A stretch of DNA of 64,000 bases from a virus (taxonomy: Duplodnaviria > Caudoviricetes). The first letter of the stretch is position 1, and every line of letters starts with the position of its first letter. Shown one piece after another: positions 1-63,439 of this stretch. Both the position numbers and the translations under genes were made by a program. The stretch is taken from IMG/VR virus record IMGVR_UViG_3300021387_000110, positions 3,130 through 67,129 of that record; one strand, 5' to 3'. Under the pieces are notes generated by a model. That model ran no database searches and was not told the DNA's origin. It worked only from the letters and a program-made list of their open reading frames with translations.

Positions 1-799
1 TGAATTTGTCAATAACTTCCGGAGCTTTTTCTGCGTCCTCTAATAAAATACAGTAATCGTCCATATAATGACTGTATTCTGTCAGGCCCATTTGGCAGGT
101 CATATAGTTGTCAAGGTCAGATGGAAGATGTATCATTTCAGCCTGACTGGGTTCTACGCCAAGAGGCATACCCAATGTGCTTGGTACTGTATCAATGATA
201 CTGTCTGCCAATCTGCGGAGCTGTTTATTTTCTATCAAATCACGGTGAACCTGTCTAAGGACATCGTGGGAGGCTGATGGAAAGAACTGTTTGAAATCTA
301 TAAGAATGGCCACTCCAGTCCTACCGTACTTCCTATAATGTTCGTGCAGGTCTTTTATTAGTTGCCGTTGTGCAAATTCATAGCCTTTACCTCGTTGACT
401 GGCGCCGTTATTATATATCATCCTGGGCTGATATAGTGGTAAAAGCACTTCATTTGTAAGGGTTTTGTGTATTTGACGGTCTTGAATATGAGGGGCGTCT
501 ATTGGCCGTACTTTACCTCGCTCGTTCAGTCTAAAATGACAATATCTGTGCCATTTATATTTCTGCTTTAAGACTTTTCTACGGTTTTTCGCTGTGATGG
601 AAAATATGTGAAGCTCAAAAAGTTGGGTACTGCATTTCCACCGTACTCCTTTACAGCACTTTTTACCGTAATTATACATCTTATTATAAGTAAATACATC
701 TTCGATACCGCCGACGGAAAGAGTACGAGCCTGCCTATTGGCTTCTCGCTTCGCCTTCCGTCGTTGGTACCTTCTCTCACGACGTTCTTCATTGGTCAA
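1..799 (-). CDS. DGR reverse transcriptase, 5' part (266 codons, runs off window edge; not in ORF track)
   Basis: Manual translation from TTG at 799 (GAGGAG 9 nt upstream): MTNEERRERRYQRRKAKR...RPIDAPHIQDRQIH...NNGASQRGKG...LIDFKQFFPS...GMPLGVEPSQ...HYMDDY (YMDD at 56-67); open to position 2. Confidence 0.95.
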   Translation of the reverse strand, partial: MTNEERRERRYQRRKAKREANRQARTLSVGGIEDVFTYNKMYNYGKKCCKGVRWKCSTQLFELHIFSITAKNRRKVLKQKYKWHRYCHFRLNERGKVRPIDAPHIQDRQIHKTLTNEVLLPLYQPRMIYNNGASQRGKGYEFAQRQLIKDLHEHYRKYGRTGVAILIDFKQFFPSASHDVLRQVHRDLIENKQLRRLADSIIDTVPSTLGMPLGVEPSQAEMIHLPSDLDNYMTCQMGLTEYSHYMDDYCILLEDAEKAPEVIDKF

Positions 800-1025
800 A
801 ATTCTTCGCTCCTCGCACAATTATGGTATAGTAAGGTATCTAAATTGCATAACGACTACACATTGAATACAGTAAACCTCATCCTGTATAATGCACGAAA
901 GCGTCCGTGCAGCCGTGTCAAGGAGCACTTTCGGGCCGAAGCCACAGGAAGTACCTCTCCTCTCAAATGGGGTCATAGGTTCACACATTCGTTACTGTCT
1001 TTTCGACCCACGCAAAATTTGAAAT
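800..1025 (-). ncRNA. Structured spacer 3' of TR (probable part of the DGR RNA)
   Basis: GGC-TTCG-GCC tetraloop hairpin (934-943), TGCACG/CGTGCA stem (892-911), ATACAG/CTGTAT stem; no credible minus-strand ORF. Confidence 0.6.
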
Positions 1026-1126
1026 CGACGGACACGCCATTAGTATTGTTGGCATTGTTATTGTTCGGGTTGCCGTTGTTGTTGACATTACAGAAATTGT
1101 TGCTGTTGTTCTGATTGACCGAACGG
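1026..1126 (-). repeat. DGR template repeat (TR)
   Basis: Non-coding AAC/AAT-rich copy of VR between avd and RT; 17 AAY triplets in the VR reading frame. Confidence 0.95.
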
Positions 1127-1146
1127 CCGAACACACAGAGATACAC

Positions 1147-1608
1147 CTACGACCGACGAGACCGGTCGCTATCGAGAACTGCTTTAATGAGGTTCATTTC
1201 TCGGTCAATTTTCTCACCGAGAGATTGAGCCATACTATCTAAACGCTTGGTTGCTCTTGACGCCTCCAGCGTTTTGCCCTTAGTATCAGTAAAGCAACCT
1301 TGCGGATTTTTCATCATTATGTTATACAGGTGAGCCATTTTTACATCAAGTGCAGAAACAGCTCCTAATGCCTCCAGAAGGTGTCGCTCACGATATTCCG
1401 CTTTGACTTTATCTGTCGGCAATACTTTATTAGCCATTTCACAATGGTCAATAACGTCACTCGCTCGGGCACATATCTCCGGAGCAAGTAATCTACCGTA
1501 TCTCGCCGAAACTCGGGAGAGAAATTGGTACGTTTCCGTAAAAATCTCATTGGCAACATTTACGAACTCCGCCCTACTTAAATTTTGCTTGGACTTTAAT
1601 ACAGACAT
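1147..1608 (-). CDS. avd: Accessory variability determinant (Avd-like four-helix-bundle protein)
   Basis: 153 aa, helical, MSVLKSKQNLS start and ...ANKVLPT...YRERHLLEA pattern typical of Firmicute DGR Avd; position between target and TR. Confidence 0.85.
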   Translation of the reverse strand: MSVLKSKQNLSRAEFVNVANEIFTETYQFLSRVSARYGRLLAPEICARASDVIDHCEMANKVLPTDKVKAEYRERHLLEALGAVSALDVKMAHLYNIMMKNPQGCFTDTKGKTLEASRATKRLDSMAQSLGEKIDREMNLIKAVLDSDRSRRS

Positions 1609-1680
1609 AACAATTTTTCTCCCTTATTTCAGCTTGATTAGGCTTCGCTGGCGCTCAGCCGGACTTTGGTCGACTTTGGA

Positions 1681-3480
1681 TTAGACACGGAGAGCGACGG
1701 ACACGCCATTAGTATAGTTGGCATTGTTACCGTTCGGGTTGCCGCTGGTGTTGACACTACAGAAACCGTTGCTGTAGTACTGACGGACCGAACGGTTCCA
1801 CCAATAAGTGTTACTATCCGTCTGTTCCGACTTAGCCTTAACCTTACTGTTACCAGCAGAATAGTACGCATACTGTGCCTGATGACCGTCCGCGGACTCA
1901 TAAGTATTGGAATAAGTATGAGCACCGTGAACTTCATACTCGGACAACAGTCGCATATAGTCTACCGTAGCTGTAACATTGGCTGCAACAGAGCCAGAAC
2001 CTCCGCCCACGTTATCAGAATACGTGGTCATCGGCTTCAATACAGCTCTCAGGTCAGCCGGCAGAATAGCCATCAACGAACCTGAAACAGGGTTAGAGGT
2101 CGTTGCAGGAGTAGCATCCCCGTTAGGCGTATCAGTAGCGCCGAGGTGTGTATTACGCATTTTGGAATTCTTCCAACCGCCGGCATTGGTACTACTATCG
2201 TTCATATTGGTACCACCAGACGACGGTCTAATACAAACATCTGTACCATTTGTAAGAGCCGTTTTGAATGTACCAAACGTGATACCGTTACCCTCAGTAG
2301 CCGAGTTGTGATTAAACCCGAGAATAAACAGACCAAGCTGACGGTTACTAAACGTAACGCCGCAAGCGGTACCATTCAAAGTAATCATCTTGACATCACC
2401 GACGGACCAGTAGTTGGCACCTTCGTCATCAACACTTTCGATTGCGTCCCAATCGTTGTTGTTGAGAACGGCGTCAATATCCTGTCCTGTAACAGTAATG
2501 CCAGTCAGCGTAGCGGAACGTGTTCTACCATCGTGGTGATAGGAGACTTCTACCGAAGTATCGGTCGTTTTCAACCTCGCCGGCACAAATGTCAGGTCGT
2601 TATTATCTACGACACTCGTGGCACCGCTGGTATATGTAGCTGTAACTACCATACCTGTCGGGTCAAGGGATTCGCCAGAAACATAGGCCATCTTCGTAGG
2701 CGGAGTAGTAATAGCAATACTAACGAGCGGGTCATCATCTTCACCAACTGTGATGTTAGTAGTAGTGGTAAGGGTATCACCGCTATCACTAACATAGGAG
2801 ATAGTGATAACCTCAGTTCCGAGTTCGTCTGTGACAGTAGGACTAAACGTCCAACCTGTAACAACCTCGGTATCTCCGTTAGAACGGGTACCCGTGACAA
2901 CACATCCAGTCATATCAATGGCCTCACCAGACTTATAGTTGGTCTTTGTAGGCGGAGTGGTAACAGCTATGCTGTCAATGTAGTTGGTAACGGTCACACT
3001 CTGGTTGTAAGTAGCGGAATAACCGTCCTCAGAATAGGTGATAGTAACCGAAGTGGTACCAACAGTCAGCACCGTCGGACTAACAGAGAATTTGGCAGGC
3101 TCGCTGTTATACGACACATAACGCTGGGCACCGTTGCTGTAATTGACGTAGACCGCAAATCCTGCGAGGTTAACGCTCTCACCCGCTTTGTACACAATCT
3201 TAGTAGGCTGCGAAGAACGGGAGATTGAGGTAACGTGAATACCAGAGGACGACGGAACATTGACAACTACAGGAGAAAATCCGTCAACACCGGACGGTGC
3301 CGTGTAGGTACCATTAGCGTTAATACTCTTGGACTCAATGACAGGCGTACGGCCTGTGGGGATATTATCAATGGCGTCTGCCATCTCACTTACTTTATAG
3401 GTAGTCGCTGACCCATTTTTGCCACGAATAGACGCCGCAATAGCCTGGATATTGGACTCCTCATAAAGTTTCTTTGACAT
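1681..3480 (-). CDS. DGR target protein: three bacterial Ig-like (Big_3-type) repeats plus C-terminal DUF6273/C-type-lectin-like variable domain
   Basis: Three SI-x-(T/S)-x-PTK-x-x-Y-x-x-GE repeats; C-terminus YWWNRSVRQYYSNGFCSVNTSGNPNGNNANYTNGVSVALRV encoded by VR. Confidence 0.9.
   Translation of the reverse strand: MSKKLYEESNIQAIAASIRGKNGSATTYKVSEMADAIDNIPTGRTPVIESKSINANGTYTAPSGVDGFSPVVVNVPSSSGIHVTSISRSSQPTKIVYKAGESVNLAGFAVYVNYSNGAQRYVSYNSEPAKFSVSPTVLTVGTTSVTITYSEDGYSATYNQSVTVTNYIDSIAVTTPPTKTNYKSGEAIDMTGCVVTGTRSNGDTEVVTGWTFSPTVTDELGTEVITISYVSDSGDTLTTTTNITVGEDDDPLVSIAITTPPTKMAYVSGESLDPTGMVVTATYTSGATSVVDNNDLTFVPARLKTTDTSVEVSYHHDGRTRSATLTGITVTGQDIDAVLNNNDWDAIESVDDEGANYWSVGDVKMITLNGTACGVTFSNRQLGLFILGFNHNSATEGNGITFGTFKTALTNGTDVCIRPSSGGTNMNDSSTNAGGWKNSKMRNTHLGATDTPNGDATPATTSNPVSGSLMAILPADLRAVLKPMTTYSDNVGGGSGSVAANVTATVDYMRLLSEYEVHGAHTYSNTYESADGHQAQYAYYSAGNSKVKAKSEQTDSNTYWWNRSVRQYYSNGFCSVNTSGNPNGNNANYTNGVSVALRV
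1695..1795 (-). repeat. DGR variable repeat (VR), ending in GC-rich IMH-like GGCGTGTCCGTCG
   Basis: 89/101 identity to TR (offset 669), all differences opposite TR adenines. Confidence 0.95.
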
Positions 3481-3500
3481 TTCTTTTCACCTCCTTTCTA

Positions 3501-3734
3501 TTAGTATTCGGTATTGTCAGCGTCAAGACTGGCAATATATGAGAAAACCGCACCGCCTGTTACCAGACCGGGGTCGTTCTCTGCAACCGAGCCAGGACTC
3601 TCATAGACCAGAACTCCTTGCGAATTGAGGCGAGGAACCTGACCAGAAGAGCCAGCAGAAACAGGTAATTGACTGGTTTTACCAACCGCGGTGTCAATTT
3701 CCTGGCCAGTATAACTGGAATGATAGTTAGCCAT
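3501..3734 (-). CDS. Small virion-associated-like protein
   Basis: YHSSYTGQEIDTAV, GLVTGGAV and C-terminal ADNTEY motifs resemble tail-fibre N-terminal/adaptor peptides; coupled to neighbours. Confidence 0.55.
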   Translation of the reverse strand: MANYHSSYTGQEIDTAVGKTSQLPVSAGSSGQVPRLNSQGVLVYESPGSVAENDPGLVTGGAVFSYIASLDADNTEY

Positions 3735-3918
3735 TACTTACCTCCTGTGTCAAAATGAATTTTTCGTTAAGCGAGGTATAAAATACCTTGCTATCGGATG
3801 TCAAAAGAGCGATTCCTGACTGGGACCCTTTAAGGCTTTTCAGCGCCGCCAGTCTAAATACAGGTGATTTTGACTTGGAGACCCTGTCCAGCAACATAAA
3901 CTGCTTGAAATTCGGCAT
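3727..3918 (-). CDS. Hypothetical small protein (LLTSDSKVFYTS motif)
   Basis: ORF overlapping neighbours; start refined to ATG at 3918. Confidence 0.55.
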   Translation of the reverse strand: MPNFKQFMLLDRVSKSKSPVFRLAALKSLKGSQSGIALLTSDSKVFYTSLNEKFILTQEVSNG

Positions 3919-3919
3919 A

Positions 3920-4129
3920 TTATTCGCCCCATTCCCAGGTATCGTCACTCTTTAAGAGGGCAACCTCGAGTTTTGCGGTGTAAACAATACTACCAGCACT
4001 CAAAGTACCCACGAGGCCCTTGACCTCAGTCGCAGAGCCCGTCTCCGGGACTTCCTCTTTCGTGTCTGCGAATACAGTACACACCTTTTCATCGGTAGTA
4101 CCGCCGTCGATAGATACGAGCTTAATCAT
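3920..4129 (-). CDS. Hypothetical phage protein (69 aa)
   Basis: AGGAGG RBS, ATGA overlap with upstream; FADTKEEV...AGSIVYTA pattern recalled from Firmicute phages. Confidence 0.7.
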   Translation of the reverse strand: MIKLVSIDGGTTDEKVCTVFADTKEEVPETGSATEVKGLVGTLSAGSIVYTAKLEVALLKSDDTWEWGE

Positions 4130-4153
4130 TGAGCTTTACCTCCTATAAAATAT

Positions 4154-5512
4154 TTATTTACCTTTACGTTTCCATACTCGTTCAAGGGCATAACGCACGG
4201 CGTCAATGTTGTGGTTATTCGCATCCGGGTATCCGCTGATAACTTCGTCATCTTTGTCCCTTTCATACTCATATCGCACAAATTCCTTGAGGGTTTCCGG
4301 GCAACGAACAGGGTCAATATAGATATGGTTAAGAGATTGTAACCACTTCATACTATAATTTACGCTATCGGGGCCTTTTTCAGCGGGTCGACAGCCATAT
4401 CCACCGTAGGATTTGTAGTCTGAAATAGATTTTGGCTCGGCACTGTCCGCTGTAAGTATTTCATCGGGCTCCATAAAGTGTCTTTGGCGTATAAAATTAC
4501 CATTCTCACGAGAATTTATAAGAAATTCCTCGGTATATATCTCTTTTTCGTGGTACAAGGCGTCAAAGGTATTTCTATTAGTCTGCTTATTGACCCTATA
4601 TTCAGCAAAAATATAGAGATTTCTGCGGGCAATATCAAAATGTACCTTGTTAAATGCAAACGGGTCAGGGAACCAACCCCAGTCAAGGCCACTGTAAATA
4701 TGGTCAAAATGACTGATAAATTCGTCCGACATATACATCGGTTCAACATTCTCAAAGACATTACCGCCTGTGCCGACAGGAATACCAAGGTATTCGTGTT
4801 CATACGCTCTTGGATTTGTCGCTTTCAAGTCCATAGCCTCGTCAATGAACGCTTGACCAAGCCACTCCTCAGGTACATCAAGATATGTATTCTTGACTAC
4901 GAGGGTATTTTCTCGGCCCATAGCGTCTATGGCGTATTGATTTGCCCAATTCATATTAGAAATGGGCGGGTTAAAGCTACGGAAATCCCAAAATTTGGTA
5001 CCACCACGCATTGTTGACTGTAATACCTTACGAATTTCTTTCTCGCCAGAGAATTGGTCAAGCTCCTCGAACCAGGTAATGCCGATATAACCAAAAGGCA
5101 GCTTAATAGACTTGACTTTATTAGGGTCATCTAAGCCGAAAAACAGAATTTGCTGGCCGGTAGGTAAAAATACGATAGGATTTGCAATACTTTTGGGTAT
5201 TTTGAAGAAAGGAGTTAATCCCATCTTGTCAATACCCCATACCATCTGGGACCAAACGCTGTTTTTCATTGTATTACCTACTTTTCTGAATACAACCGCG
5301 TGAACTTCGGGATTTTTCATCATCAAAGTAGGGATTACCTCTGAAATATTCGAGGATTTTGTAGAGCCACGACCGCCTGAAAAGACGTAGTGAGTATGTC
5401 CGTGGTTAAAGATGTCCTCCCAAACGGGTTTATACATAGGAATAAGGACATCTTTCATATTAACCCGAACTTCGGGGGTAGCGACTTTGACGGGTCTCCT
5501 CATTCTGGGCAT
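4154..5512 (-). CDS. terL: Terminase large subunit (PBSX-like)
   Basis: Walker A GGRGSTKS, Walker B ITWFEE, coupling FNPP, nuclease GLDWG and NHNIDAVRYA. Confidence 0.95.
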   Translation of the reverse strand: MPRMRRPVKVATPEVRVNMKDVLIPMYKPVWEDIFNHGHTHYVFSGGRGSTKSSNISEVIPTLMMKNPEVHAVVFRKVGNTMKNSVWSQMVWGIDKMGLTPFFKIPKSIANPIVFLPTGQQILFFGLDDPNKVKSIKLPFGYIGITWFEELDQFSGEKEIRKVLQSTMRGGTKFWDFRSFNPPISNMNWANQYAIDAMGRENTLVVKNTYLDVPEEWLGQAFIDEAMDLKATNPRAYEHEYLGIPVGTGGNVFENVEPMYMSDEFISHFDHIYSGLDWGWFPDPFAFNKVHFDIARRNLYIFAEYRVNKQTNRNTFDALYHEKEIYTEEFLINSRENGNFIRQRHFMEPDEILTADSAEPKSISDYKSYGGYGCRPAEKGPDSVNYSMKWLQSLNHIYIDPVRCPETLKEFVRYEYERDKDDEVISGYPDANNHNIDAVRYALERVWKRKGK

Positions 5513-5515
5513 AGA

Positions 5516-5977
5516 TTACATTCCTTCCCAGTTGAGAGTTACCTTAATTTCAGGTACCGCAGTATCGTTATCAGTAGGAACATCTACAATACGTCTTGCA
5601 AGCTCTTTGGCAGCGTTGGTACGCTCCGACAAAGGAGCATCCAGCCCAAACTGGTCTTTCTCCTCGCCGCGCATTACCTTGGTGAAATACTGTAAGATTT
5701 CATCCGCATCCGCGATGGACTCTTTTTTAAGCTGGTCAAGACGCCAAGTAATCTCGTCGGCTATATAATCTTTGCCGGCAAGGTCTTTCATCTTTAACCC
5801 AGCTTCTCGAAGGCACTTATTGAGCTTGCCATTAGCCACAAACAGACTAATAAACCTACTCTCGGCAGCGGAGAGCGGGTAACCGTCGTGAGTAACATCT
5901 ACGCCGTCAATGGTACCGTGGCCCACCTTTGTCAGGAAGTCCTTATAGTCATTAAATCCAGGCATTTTTTCAGGCAT
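5516..5977 (-). CDS. terS: Terminase small subunit
   Basis: IADADEILQYFTKVMRGE...ERTNAAKELAR motif; immediately upstream of terL. Confidence 0.85.
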   Translation of the reverse strand: MPEKMPGFNDYKDFLTKVGHGTIDGVDVTHDGYPLSAAESRFISLFVANGKLNKCLREAGLKMKDLAGKDYIADEITWRLDQLKKESIADADEILQYFTKVMRGEEKDQFGLDAPLSERTNAAKELARRIVDVPTDNDTAVPEIKVTLNWEGM

Positions 5978-6432
5978 TATTTATTCTCCTCTCTTTGCTT
6001 TTTCTTATTAAGTAATTTTTGGGCAATAGATTGAAGCTGGTTCTCTTTAATCTGGGTAGATTTAGAAAACAGGTCTTTCATCTTTACTGCCTGCTGTCGC
6101 TGGGCACTACTTCCCTCTTTCATTACCTTATCAAGTGACGGGTTGGTGCTGTCAACAGCTACCTTTGACTTGATTTCAGGAACAGAGTTACGATAGCCTA
6201 TAATGGTCATTGTGCGGCTATCTTTACTAAGGCGAAACTGAAACAAGATATTATCCCCTCTGGTTGACGGCACTTTCAAGGTAATTTTATTGGCTGAGGG
6301 CTTATCAAGGCCAGAAGCAGGGGGTACTTTGCCCTTAAAAACAACGGCGCCTTTAATGCCGAACGTATCATTATCAATAGCGCCTTTTCCTTTTCCGCGA
6401 AAAGCGGAATGTCCTGTACTGCCCATAATCAA
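5977..6432 (-). CDS. Hypothetical basic protein
   Basis: 151 aa ORF with AGGAGG RBS, coupled to terS. Confidence 0.7.
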   Translation of the reverse strand: MIMGSTGHSAFRGKGKGAIDNDTFGIKGAVVFKGKVPPASGLDKPSANKITLKVPSTRGDNILFQFRLSKDSRTMTIIGYRNSVPEIKSKVAVDSTNPSLDKVMKEGSSAQRQQAVKMKDLFSKSTQIKENQLQSIAQKLLNKKKQREENK

Positions 6433-41462: not shown

Positions 41463-41537
41463 TGGTTGCGGAGAGGGGACTCGAACCCCCGACATCTTGG
41501 TTATGAGCCAAGCGAGCTACCACTGCTCTACCCCGCG
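41463..41537 (-). tRNA. tRNA-Met(CAT), initiator type
   Basis: Full cloverleaf, CAT anticodon, C1:A72 mismatch, A11:U24, encoded CCA. Confidence 0.95.
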
Positions 41538-62642: not shown

Positions 62643-63308
62643 TTATTTTTCGTGAGGTCTTACCCCTACGAAATTAAAGTTAAACGGGTTCGGCTCTCCG
62701 CCGGCGCCCTGAGGCTCGTTACCAGTAGGACCTGCAAAATGGGGCTTCGGCTTATTGGGCTCAGGGTCAGGAGTCGGGTCAGGCTGTTCAACAACGAAGG
62801 AATCCTCGTTGTCCTTAGCGTAAGCCGTTCTGAAATCCTCAGCACCGAGAATAGTCTCGCCTTCCATTTTCAGCTTCTTGTCAAGCATAGAGCGGATAAA
62901 CTCTTTCTTGGCAGCCTTGCTGGTGAACTTAATACCGTTGGCATAAGTCTTTACAGCGAACTCATAGGCCTGGTCTGCCAACTGCTGTTGATACGCTTTG
63001 GTATCGGTGTCGTACTTACCCTGGAGAGCGGTGAGGTCACTCTGGAGAGTAGTCAACTTTTCAGCATCGGTGCCTGCAGCCTTAAGCTGGTCCTGCAACT
63101 TCGCCAAGTCGGTATCACGAGTAGCGATGGTGTCATTGAGGGTGTTAATGCGGGTGTCACGGGCTGCCAATTCGTCGGTATGCTTCTGTTTGTCAACATA
63201 ATTACCCTCAGTCAGGTCAACAAACTTTGAATTACCTGCAGCCGCCACTAACTGGTCCCAAGTAAGGGTGCCGTTAGGTGCCTTGTCAAAAAGGTCTTTC
63301 AGGTTCAT
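62643..63308 (-). CDS. Capsid scaffolding protein
   Basis: Charged coiled coil, YVDKQK motif, Pro/Gly C-terminus; upstream of MCP. Confidence 0.85.
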   Translation of the reverse strand: MNLKDLFDKAPNGTLTWDQLVAAAGNSKFVDLTEGNYVDKQKHTDELAARDTRINTLNDTIATRDTDLAKLQDQLKAAGTDAEKLTTLQSDLTALQGKYDTDTKAYQQQLADQAYEFAVKTYANGIKFTSKAAKKEFIRSMLDKKLKMEGETILGAEDFRTAYAKDNEDSFVVEQPDPTPDPEPNKPKPHFAGPTGNEPQGAGGEPNPFNFNFVGVRPHEK

Positions 63309-63439
63309 AATCTTCCTCCTACAATCTGTAATCAGTTTAATTTATAAATCCGCAGTCTATTCTCTCTGCGCCGGATTGTGCCTATTTTTAAGTGTTGTCA
63401 GGCTCAACTATATACTAAATTATCCCTTATGGAATAAAA

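Follow-up and report, generated by a model that had tools for sequence, protein, structure and literature searches.

A diversity-generating retroelement of the avd-TR-RT architecture with an RT-2 spacer RNA in a tailed-phage genome of about 67 kb

We analysed a stretch of 64,000 nt of phage DNA (the window), which corresponds to bases 3130-67129 of the 67,129-bp IMG/VR virus record IMGVR_UViG_3300021387_000110, and which carries a diversity-generating retroelement (DGR) at its left end. The minus strand, which carries all genes of the phage genome, reads in this order: a target gene that ends in a variable repeat (VR), an Avd-like four-helix bundle protein, a template repeat (TR), an Rfam RT-2 RNA, a reverse transcriptase (RT) and, beyond the window, a conserved 131-aa open reading frame (ORF). 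The features of the locus are as follows (positions are those of the window unless the genome is named; pI, isoelectric point).

1681..3480, minus strand: DGR target gene, 599 aa; three Big_3 Ig-like repeats, then a C-terminal DUF6273 domain with the VR
1695..1795, minus strand: VR, target residues ~562-595; 12 A-specific differences from TR
1147..1608, minus strand: Avd-like accessory protein, 153 aa, pI 9.2, predicted four-helix bundle
1026..1126, minus strand: TR, 101 nt, non-coding; ungapped alignment to VR
788..1011, minus strand: Rfam RT-2 RNA (RF03077), the TR-RT spacer; full-length covariance model match
1..799, minus strand: RT, in-window part (first 266 codons); matches to Pfam RVT_1, PHROG 1423 and PDB 8ub7_A
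genome 2388-2783 (= L001:759-1154), 346-741 nt left of window base 1, minus strand: 131-aa ORF; matches PHROG 29409

The ungapped alignment of TR and VR covers 101 bp and contains 12 mismatches, all 12 of them opposite adenines of the TR on the minus, coding strand. Since 37 of the 101 nucleotides of TR are adenines, the hypergeometric probability that 12 random mismatches would all fall on A is 1.6e-6. The coordinates of the repeats and the A-only pattern, both part of the original prediction made from the sequence alone, were thus reproduced, and the nine codon changes that it listed (AAT>CGT, AAC>TAC twice, AAT>GGT twice, AAT>AGT, AAC>ACC, AAC>AGC and AAT>TAT) are exact. A genome-wide scan with the A-masked TR returned this VR as the single match. 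In the frame of the VR and target, TR consists of 17 AAY codons plus CAG, AGC and ACT. All 37 adenines occupy codon positions 1 or 2 and none the third position, and no substitution at A can create a stop codon, so that the ceiling of protein variants is 15^17 x 4^3, or 6.3e21. The count of 17 AAY codons in the original prediction therefore stands, but its ceiling of ~10^20 has to be raised, because CAG, AGC and ACT contribute the factor 4^3.

The VR sits at the target ORF's 3′ end, where 11 nt separate its end from the stop codon (1683-1681). TR and VR share a GC-rich, A-free final 13 nt, GGCGTGTCCGTCG, past which the flanks diverge to CTCTCC on the VR side and ATTTCA on the TR side; the VR-side flank is constant across all strains compared. 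On these sequence features, GGCGTGTCCGTCG has the properties of a fixed 3′ boundary of mutagenesis and is a candidate initiation-of-mutagenic-homing (IMH)-like element. An extension of the repeats by a further A>C position (1025/1694) was considered and rejected, since the VR-side flank is invariant among strains.

The RT ORF starts at 820 or 799, carries the motifs GMPLGVEPSQ and YMDD, and runs off the left edge of the window. In the full record it continues without interruption for 349 nt to a stop codon at genome 2780-2782, giving a protein of 382 aa from TTG 799-797; counted from an in-frame TTG further upstream, at 820, it has 389 aa. The start at 799, as originally proposed, is preferred on three grounds: a GAGGAG Shine-Dalgarno sequence lies at 814-809, 9 nt upstream; the 382-aa protein was called in nine of the nine related assemblies that hold the whole gene; and the Met of the RT of FP_Taranis, a cultured Faecalibacterium phage, aligns to residue 8. 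Both motifs are intact, as had been stated, and recovery of the 3′ end from the full record, a check suggested at the outset, revealed no frameshift. The RT had also been described as hidden from the ORF track; this is an artefact of the window edge and not biology, because an ordinary ORF list omits a gene whose stop codon lies outside the window. The claim that the DGR is complete accordingly holds once the 349 nt beyond the window are counted, but not for the window alone.

The RT matches Pfam RVT_1 (E 2e-13) and the reverse transcriptase family PHROG 1423 (E 2e-58). Its sole sequence match in the PDB is 8ub7_A, the 328-aa DGR RT of a Bordetella phage in a ribonucleoprotein (E 4e-7), with the LGxxxSQ and YMDD blocks aligned. 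The residues opposite R74 and I181 of this Bordetella RT (bRT) are R and L; these two bRT positions are reported to tune adenine mutagenesis. The motif 4 pattern of DGR RTs ([I/L/V]GxxxSQ) is present as LGVEPSQ and the YxDD pattern as YMDD, in a gene that lies beside the TR, which is 227 nt upstream of the RT start.

Most of the gap between TR and RT is occupied by the RT-2 RNA, which begins 15 nt past TR and reaches 11 nt into the RT gene. The match scores 105.1 bits against a gathering score of 40 and covers model positions 1-222 of 222. In each of the 11 related loci that were scanned, RT-2 was found as the TR-RT spacer, at 88-186 bits, and FP_Taranis has it at 175 bits; with the window this makes 13 of 13 cassettes. 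The Rfam scans detected no further family of RT-associated RNA, either within the cassette or next to it. Across diverged strains the spacer is 99-100% conserved, compared with 94-97% for the RT gene. Weinberg et al. (2017), who introduced the motifs RT-1 to RT-19 for RNAs found close to RT genes, located RT-10 between TR and brt in BPP-1, a Bordetella phage, and offered the speculation that further DGRs are served by others of these motifs (PMC5737381). The loci described here show RT-2 to be an instance of that speculation, and RT-2 appears to be the counterpart, in this clade, of the BPP-1 spacer RT-10. Our literature search found no paper connecting RT-2 with DGRs.

The protein encoded between target and TR is small and basic and is modelled as a four-helix bundle, as is typical of Avd, which is present in ~74% of DGRs (PMC5758913). 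Because helical bundles have a high background in fold comparisons, we regard the Avd assignment as probable from fold plus position rather than proven. The target protein ends in a pattern, YWWxRS, FCxV, G, A and G-V/L-x-x-A, that is common to the targets of 36 related loci. VR has been mapped to the C-terminus of DUF6273 in the Faecalibacterium prophages Pioen, Roos and Lelie (PMC11792537), a DUF6273-type domain of the tentaclins of gut phages has been proposed to be a C-type-lectin variant (PMC10743442), and Roux et al. (2021) described phage targets with Ig-like domains beside an uncharacterised VR domain (PMC8144416). A Foldseek comparison of a model of the target C-terminus with the PDB gave no significant match, the confidence of the model being low across the VR, and a wide VIA structure search returned 9qa6 alone and no Mtd, TvpA or FGE-type C-lectin chain. 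The N-terminal 100 aa of the target had no match in the phage collection searched.

To compare strains, the exact Avd protein was looked up in public assemblies, which yielded ten loci from independent samples. The TR is identical in eight of these and one base off in the other two. Nine of the ten hold a VR, and together with the window they present eight distinct VRs, among which all 37 TR-A positions are variable as opposed to two of the 64 non-A positions. Outside the VR, identity is 84-100% for the rest of the target (84-96% in the diverged strains), 94-100% for the RT, and 99-100% each for TR and spacer; the 300 nt upstream of VR contain 6-23 variable sites per 50 nt, which is ordinary divergence and not A-specific. 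Non-A sites of the VR are thus more uniform than their surroundings, which indicates repeated overwriting from the conserved TR and not a fossil. A sister lineage (RT ~52% identical) gave a similar picture: 17 loci have a near-identical TR and 16 different VRs, variable at 37 of 38 A positions and at 3 of 92 non-A positions. Overall, 55% of the A positions were changed, with 111 G, 26 C and 26 T among the eight alleles. This strong skew to G could stem from misincorporation bias of the RT or from selection for Gly/Ser/Asp/Arg codons.

The exact A-masked TR pattern occurs in no other IMG/VR record. A shorter form of the pattern found a single contig in JGI metagenomes, L044 (Ga0326513_10002537), which is 92-96% identical to the phage and ends 38 bp short of the VR; such an end is what one would expect from assembly breaks at the TR/VR repeat or where the VR is polymorphic. 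Compared with the L044 copy, to which it is 94.6% identical, the RT gene shows 47 synonymous and 10 non-synonymous codon changes and no internal stop; the Avd gene shows six synonymous changes and none that is non-synonymous, and one base differs in the 358 nt of TR plus spacer. A nucleotide search of the phage collection with window positions 1-6000 gave short, weak matches only.

The original prediction had inferred recent activity and proposed a tally of VR variation in mapped reads. With assemblies in place of reads, variation at TR-A positions was seen, and the eight VRs lend direct comparative support to that inference. Judged from the compared sequences, the element is demonstrably diversifying in its lineage, a claim made for the lineage and not for this copy of the genome. 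All defining parts are present, intact and in canonical order, which supports the DGR interpretation as a whole, and we conclude with high confidence that the locus is a functional DGR of avd-TR-RT architecture in a tailed phage of ~67 kb.

Several points weigh against this conclusion. In the window's own VR only 12 of the 37 A positions have changed from the TR. The strain comparison was made on consensus sequences from assemblies, for strains with 84-100% identity outside the VR, and not on reads within one population. No BPP-1-type hairpin or cruciform was detected 3′ of the VR (region 1600-1715 of the minus strand folds at -8.8 kcal/mol, z-score 0.02 against shuffles). The C-type lectin fold of the VR domain was not reproduced, given the low-confidence model and the lack of a C-type lectin chain among the matches. 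With respect to the hairpin, this element enhances homing in BPP-1 but is not universal, and it is an optional rather than a defining feature of DGRs.

The second and third of these points bear on a rival explanation in which the DGR was active in an ancestor but is inert in this genome, the VR differences being inherited haplotypes. In its favour, the comparison is at the level of assemblies and not of reads, the VR-proximal hairpin is missing, and two of the assemblies (L131 and L137) carry exactly the VR of the window. These two assemblies are, however, 100% identical to the window across the whole locus and hence represent the window's own strain, not independent observations. Moreover, RT, Avd, TR and spacer are all intact and are under purifying or stronger-than-coding constraint, and the non-A positions of VR have stayed TR-like despite up to 16% divergence of the adjoining target, which implies that overwriting from the TR recurred after the strains had split. 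We therefore consider a fossil element quite improbable. It is next to inconceivable that the locus is no DGR at all and combines an RT of a group II intron, a retron or an anti-phage defence system with an ordinary 101-bp duplication, for the weak NCBIfam similarity of the RT to group II intron RT (53 bits), retron St85 and Drt2-4 models falls far under the curated cut-offs of 200-450 bits, the A-only mismatch pattern recurs in eight alleles, the gene order and Avd fold are those of DGRs, the best PDB match is the BPP-1 DGR RT, and RT-2 is the one RT-associated RNA family in or beside the cassette.

For a functional DGR, we infer the biochemical steps by analogy with BPP-1, and likewise the host and the part that the target plays on the virion. 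A complex of RT and Avd would bind a transcript that spans TR and the RT-2 spacer RNA, and the structured spacer would position cDNA synthesis and prime it at the 3′ end of TR. Copying of TR by the RT would be faithful except opposite adenines, where any nucleotide may be inserted. The cDNA would then replace the VR, that is, the last ~34 codons of the 599-aa target, with the A-free GGCGTGTCCGTCG as the probable fixed boundary, and TR itself would remain unaltered. The expected outcome is a phage population that varies at up to 20 residues of a surface protein with a putative role in ligand binding. Such variation presumably lets the phage track variable receptors on its Clostridia hosts in the gut or rumen.

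The RTs of related IMG/VR loci are 46-55% identical to the RT described here. The layout VR-Avd-TR-RT was found in 36 of 41 such loci, and the other five contain too little upstream sequence to tell. The closest named DGRs are those of the Faecalibacterium phages FP_Taranis (NC_047914), Pioen and Roos (PMC11792537). The RT of FP_Taranis is 49% and its ~152-aa Avd-like protein 52% identical to ours; it shares RT-2, a homologue of the 131-aa ORF downstream and the order of the cassette, and its DUF6273 protein is annotated "DGR target". The VR lies at the C-terminus of DUF6273 here, in agreement with Pioen, Roos and Lelie. The two differ in location, since the FP_Taranis cassette is at the tail/lysis junction beside holin and endolysin and the present one is in the terminase-portal gap. 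The N-terminal part of the target described here (three Big_3 repeats and a 100-aa segment) is unrelated to other targets, and the backbone of this 67-kb phage, with its own PolA, DnaB, clamp and QueC-like genes, also differs.

BPP-1, the prototype (mtd-avd-TR-brt), likewise has a structured RNA between TR and RT, namely RT-10 (PMC5737381). Its RT is only remotely similar (E 4e-7), its spacer belongs to a different family from RT-2, and its target is the Mtd beta-prism/C-type lectin trimer rather than a Big_3 and DUF6273 protein. In addition, no hairpin follows the VR here, and the TR of 101 nt compares with one of 134 nt in BPP-1. The tentaclins and tgt2 proteins of gut phages nd4 and nd12 resemble the present target in that a DUF6273-type domain diversified by a DGR is combined with Ig-like domains (PMC10743442); in tentaclins, however, the variable domain is N-terminal and followed by Ig domains, whereas here the Ig-like repeats come first and DUF6273 with the VR last, and the nd12 RT is merely 27% identical to ours. 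The element is thus a further representative of an already described phage DGR family, the FP_Taranis type with a DUF6273 target.

The ATG of the 131-aa ORF overlaps the stop codon of the RT (ATGA). In L044 and all 41 related IMG/VR loci this ORF comes directly after the RT, and it is the only flanking gene common to all of them; the 41 do not have the terminase, the portal, the small ORFs or the N-terminus of the target in common with the present phage. It was kept with the cassette although the site of the cassette differs between the tail/lysis junction and the terminase-portal gap. The family comprises at least 1,310 sequence clusters, nearly all from gut Clostridia and phages of these, and occurs in the genomes of at least 80 species, again almost all Clostridia (Oscillospiraceae, Christensenellaceae, Flavonifractor, Dysosmobacter). 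Of 73 informative loci, 66 have an RT of the clade upstream of the ORF; the two genes are immediate neighbours in 26 loci and ~0.5-0.7 kb apart in about 40. On one Dysosmobacter segnis contig (L111, 3374-3985), a 203-aa ORF with Trp-rich repeats stands between the RT and the 131-aa ORF. Within the phage collection, the ORF was found in the seven records whose RT is at least 48% identical and in one 7-kb fragment, and in none of the records with more distant DGR RTs.

A Pfam search with the 131-aa ORF, scans of individual family members against Pfam at E <= 10 and a profile search of the PDB all returned no match, and the ESM Atlas contains no structure of it. The cluster name "isoaspartyl peptidase" was rejected, as it is without domain support and probably derives from the RefSeq product name of FP_Taranis gp73. 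The size of the family (131-140 aa), its pI of 5.2-9.4 and its co-occurrence with avd recall the MutS-like (MSL) class of Wu et al. (2018) (PMC5758913). MutS_I (PF01624) gave no match at E <= 10 anywhere in the genome, and no Legionella homologue was among the 80 genome loci.

One possible reading is that the 131-aa ORF, translationally coupled to the RT, constitutes an unrecognised fifth component of this DGR clade and, together with the RT-2 spacer, defines a five-part Clostridia-phage DGR subtype. We put this forward tentatively and lean against it. In four Clostridia contigs (L052, L060, L063 and L105), a DUF6273-ended protein (1,011 aa in L052) is directly followed by a 131-aa ORF homologue, and matches to RT and Avd are lacking, which points to a link with the target rather than with the RT. 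These loci may be decayed DGR cassettes or a DGR-independent pairing. The 131-aa protein is accordingly a candidate DGR accessory factor or a candidate partner of the DUF6273 protein.

The source genome has an 87-bp direct terminal repeat at the record ends and a G+C content of 44%. Contig L044 spans the ends of the record, indicating either circular permutation of the genome or its assembly as a circle. PHROG matches identified a large terminase, a major head protein, a 1,715-aa tape measure protein, DNA polymerase A, a DnaB-like helicase, a clamp and a QueC-like enzyme, and the genome is that of a complete siphovirus-like phage with its own replication genes. The neighbours of the target gene in the window are:

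3501-3734, 3727-3948 and 3920-4129: three small ORFs without family matches
4154-5512: large terminase (PHROG match)

The DGR cassette and the three small ORFs are located between the large terminase and an SPP1-type portal gene (window 1681-5512, genome 1-2030), and some 43 kb separate them from the tail genes. This placement is unusual; the cassette is at the tail/lysis junction in FP_Taranis, as it is in those Clostridia-associated metagenome contigs that were examined (L045-L048). Elsewhere in the window, an Rfam GP20-a cis-regulatory RNA motif was detected at 63312-63412 of the minus strand (71 bits, gathering score 47.2), directly upstream of a 221-aa ORF (62643-63308, minus strand) that itself precedes the major head gene; L044 has GP20-a too. 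The window also contains one tRNA-Met (CAT) at 41463-41537 of the minus strand.

Tens of thousands of DGRs have been catalogued in gut and environmental phages (PMC8144416), and the element described here adds one more that is well documented and evidently active, which leaves the field unchanged. It is a clean teaching case, in which the parts are intact and the TR and spacer RNA are better conserved than the neighbouring genes, and its eight natural VR alleles display both sides of mutagenic retrohoming, the randomisation of A and the homogenisation of non-A positions. For the orphan Rfam motif RT-2, an annotation as spacer RNA of Taranis-type DGRs is now possible, and the priming model from BPP-1 thereby gains a second RNA family, unrelated in sequence, with which it can be compared. 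The widespread unnamed 131-aa protein accompanies this RT clade and is a candidate accessory factor that can be put to the test. Finally, the cassette can sit in the packaging/head module and not with the tail genes, which prompts one to ask where the diversified Ig-like/DUF6273 protein is displayed on the virion.

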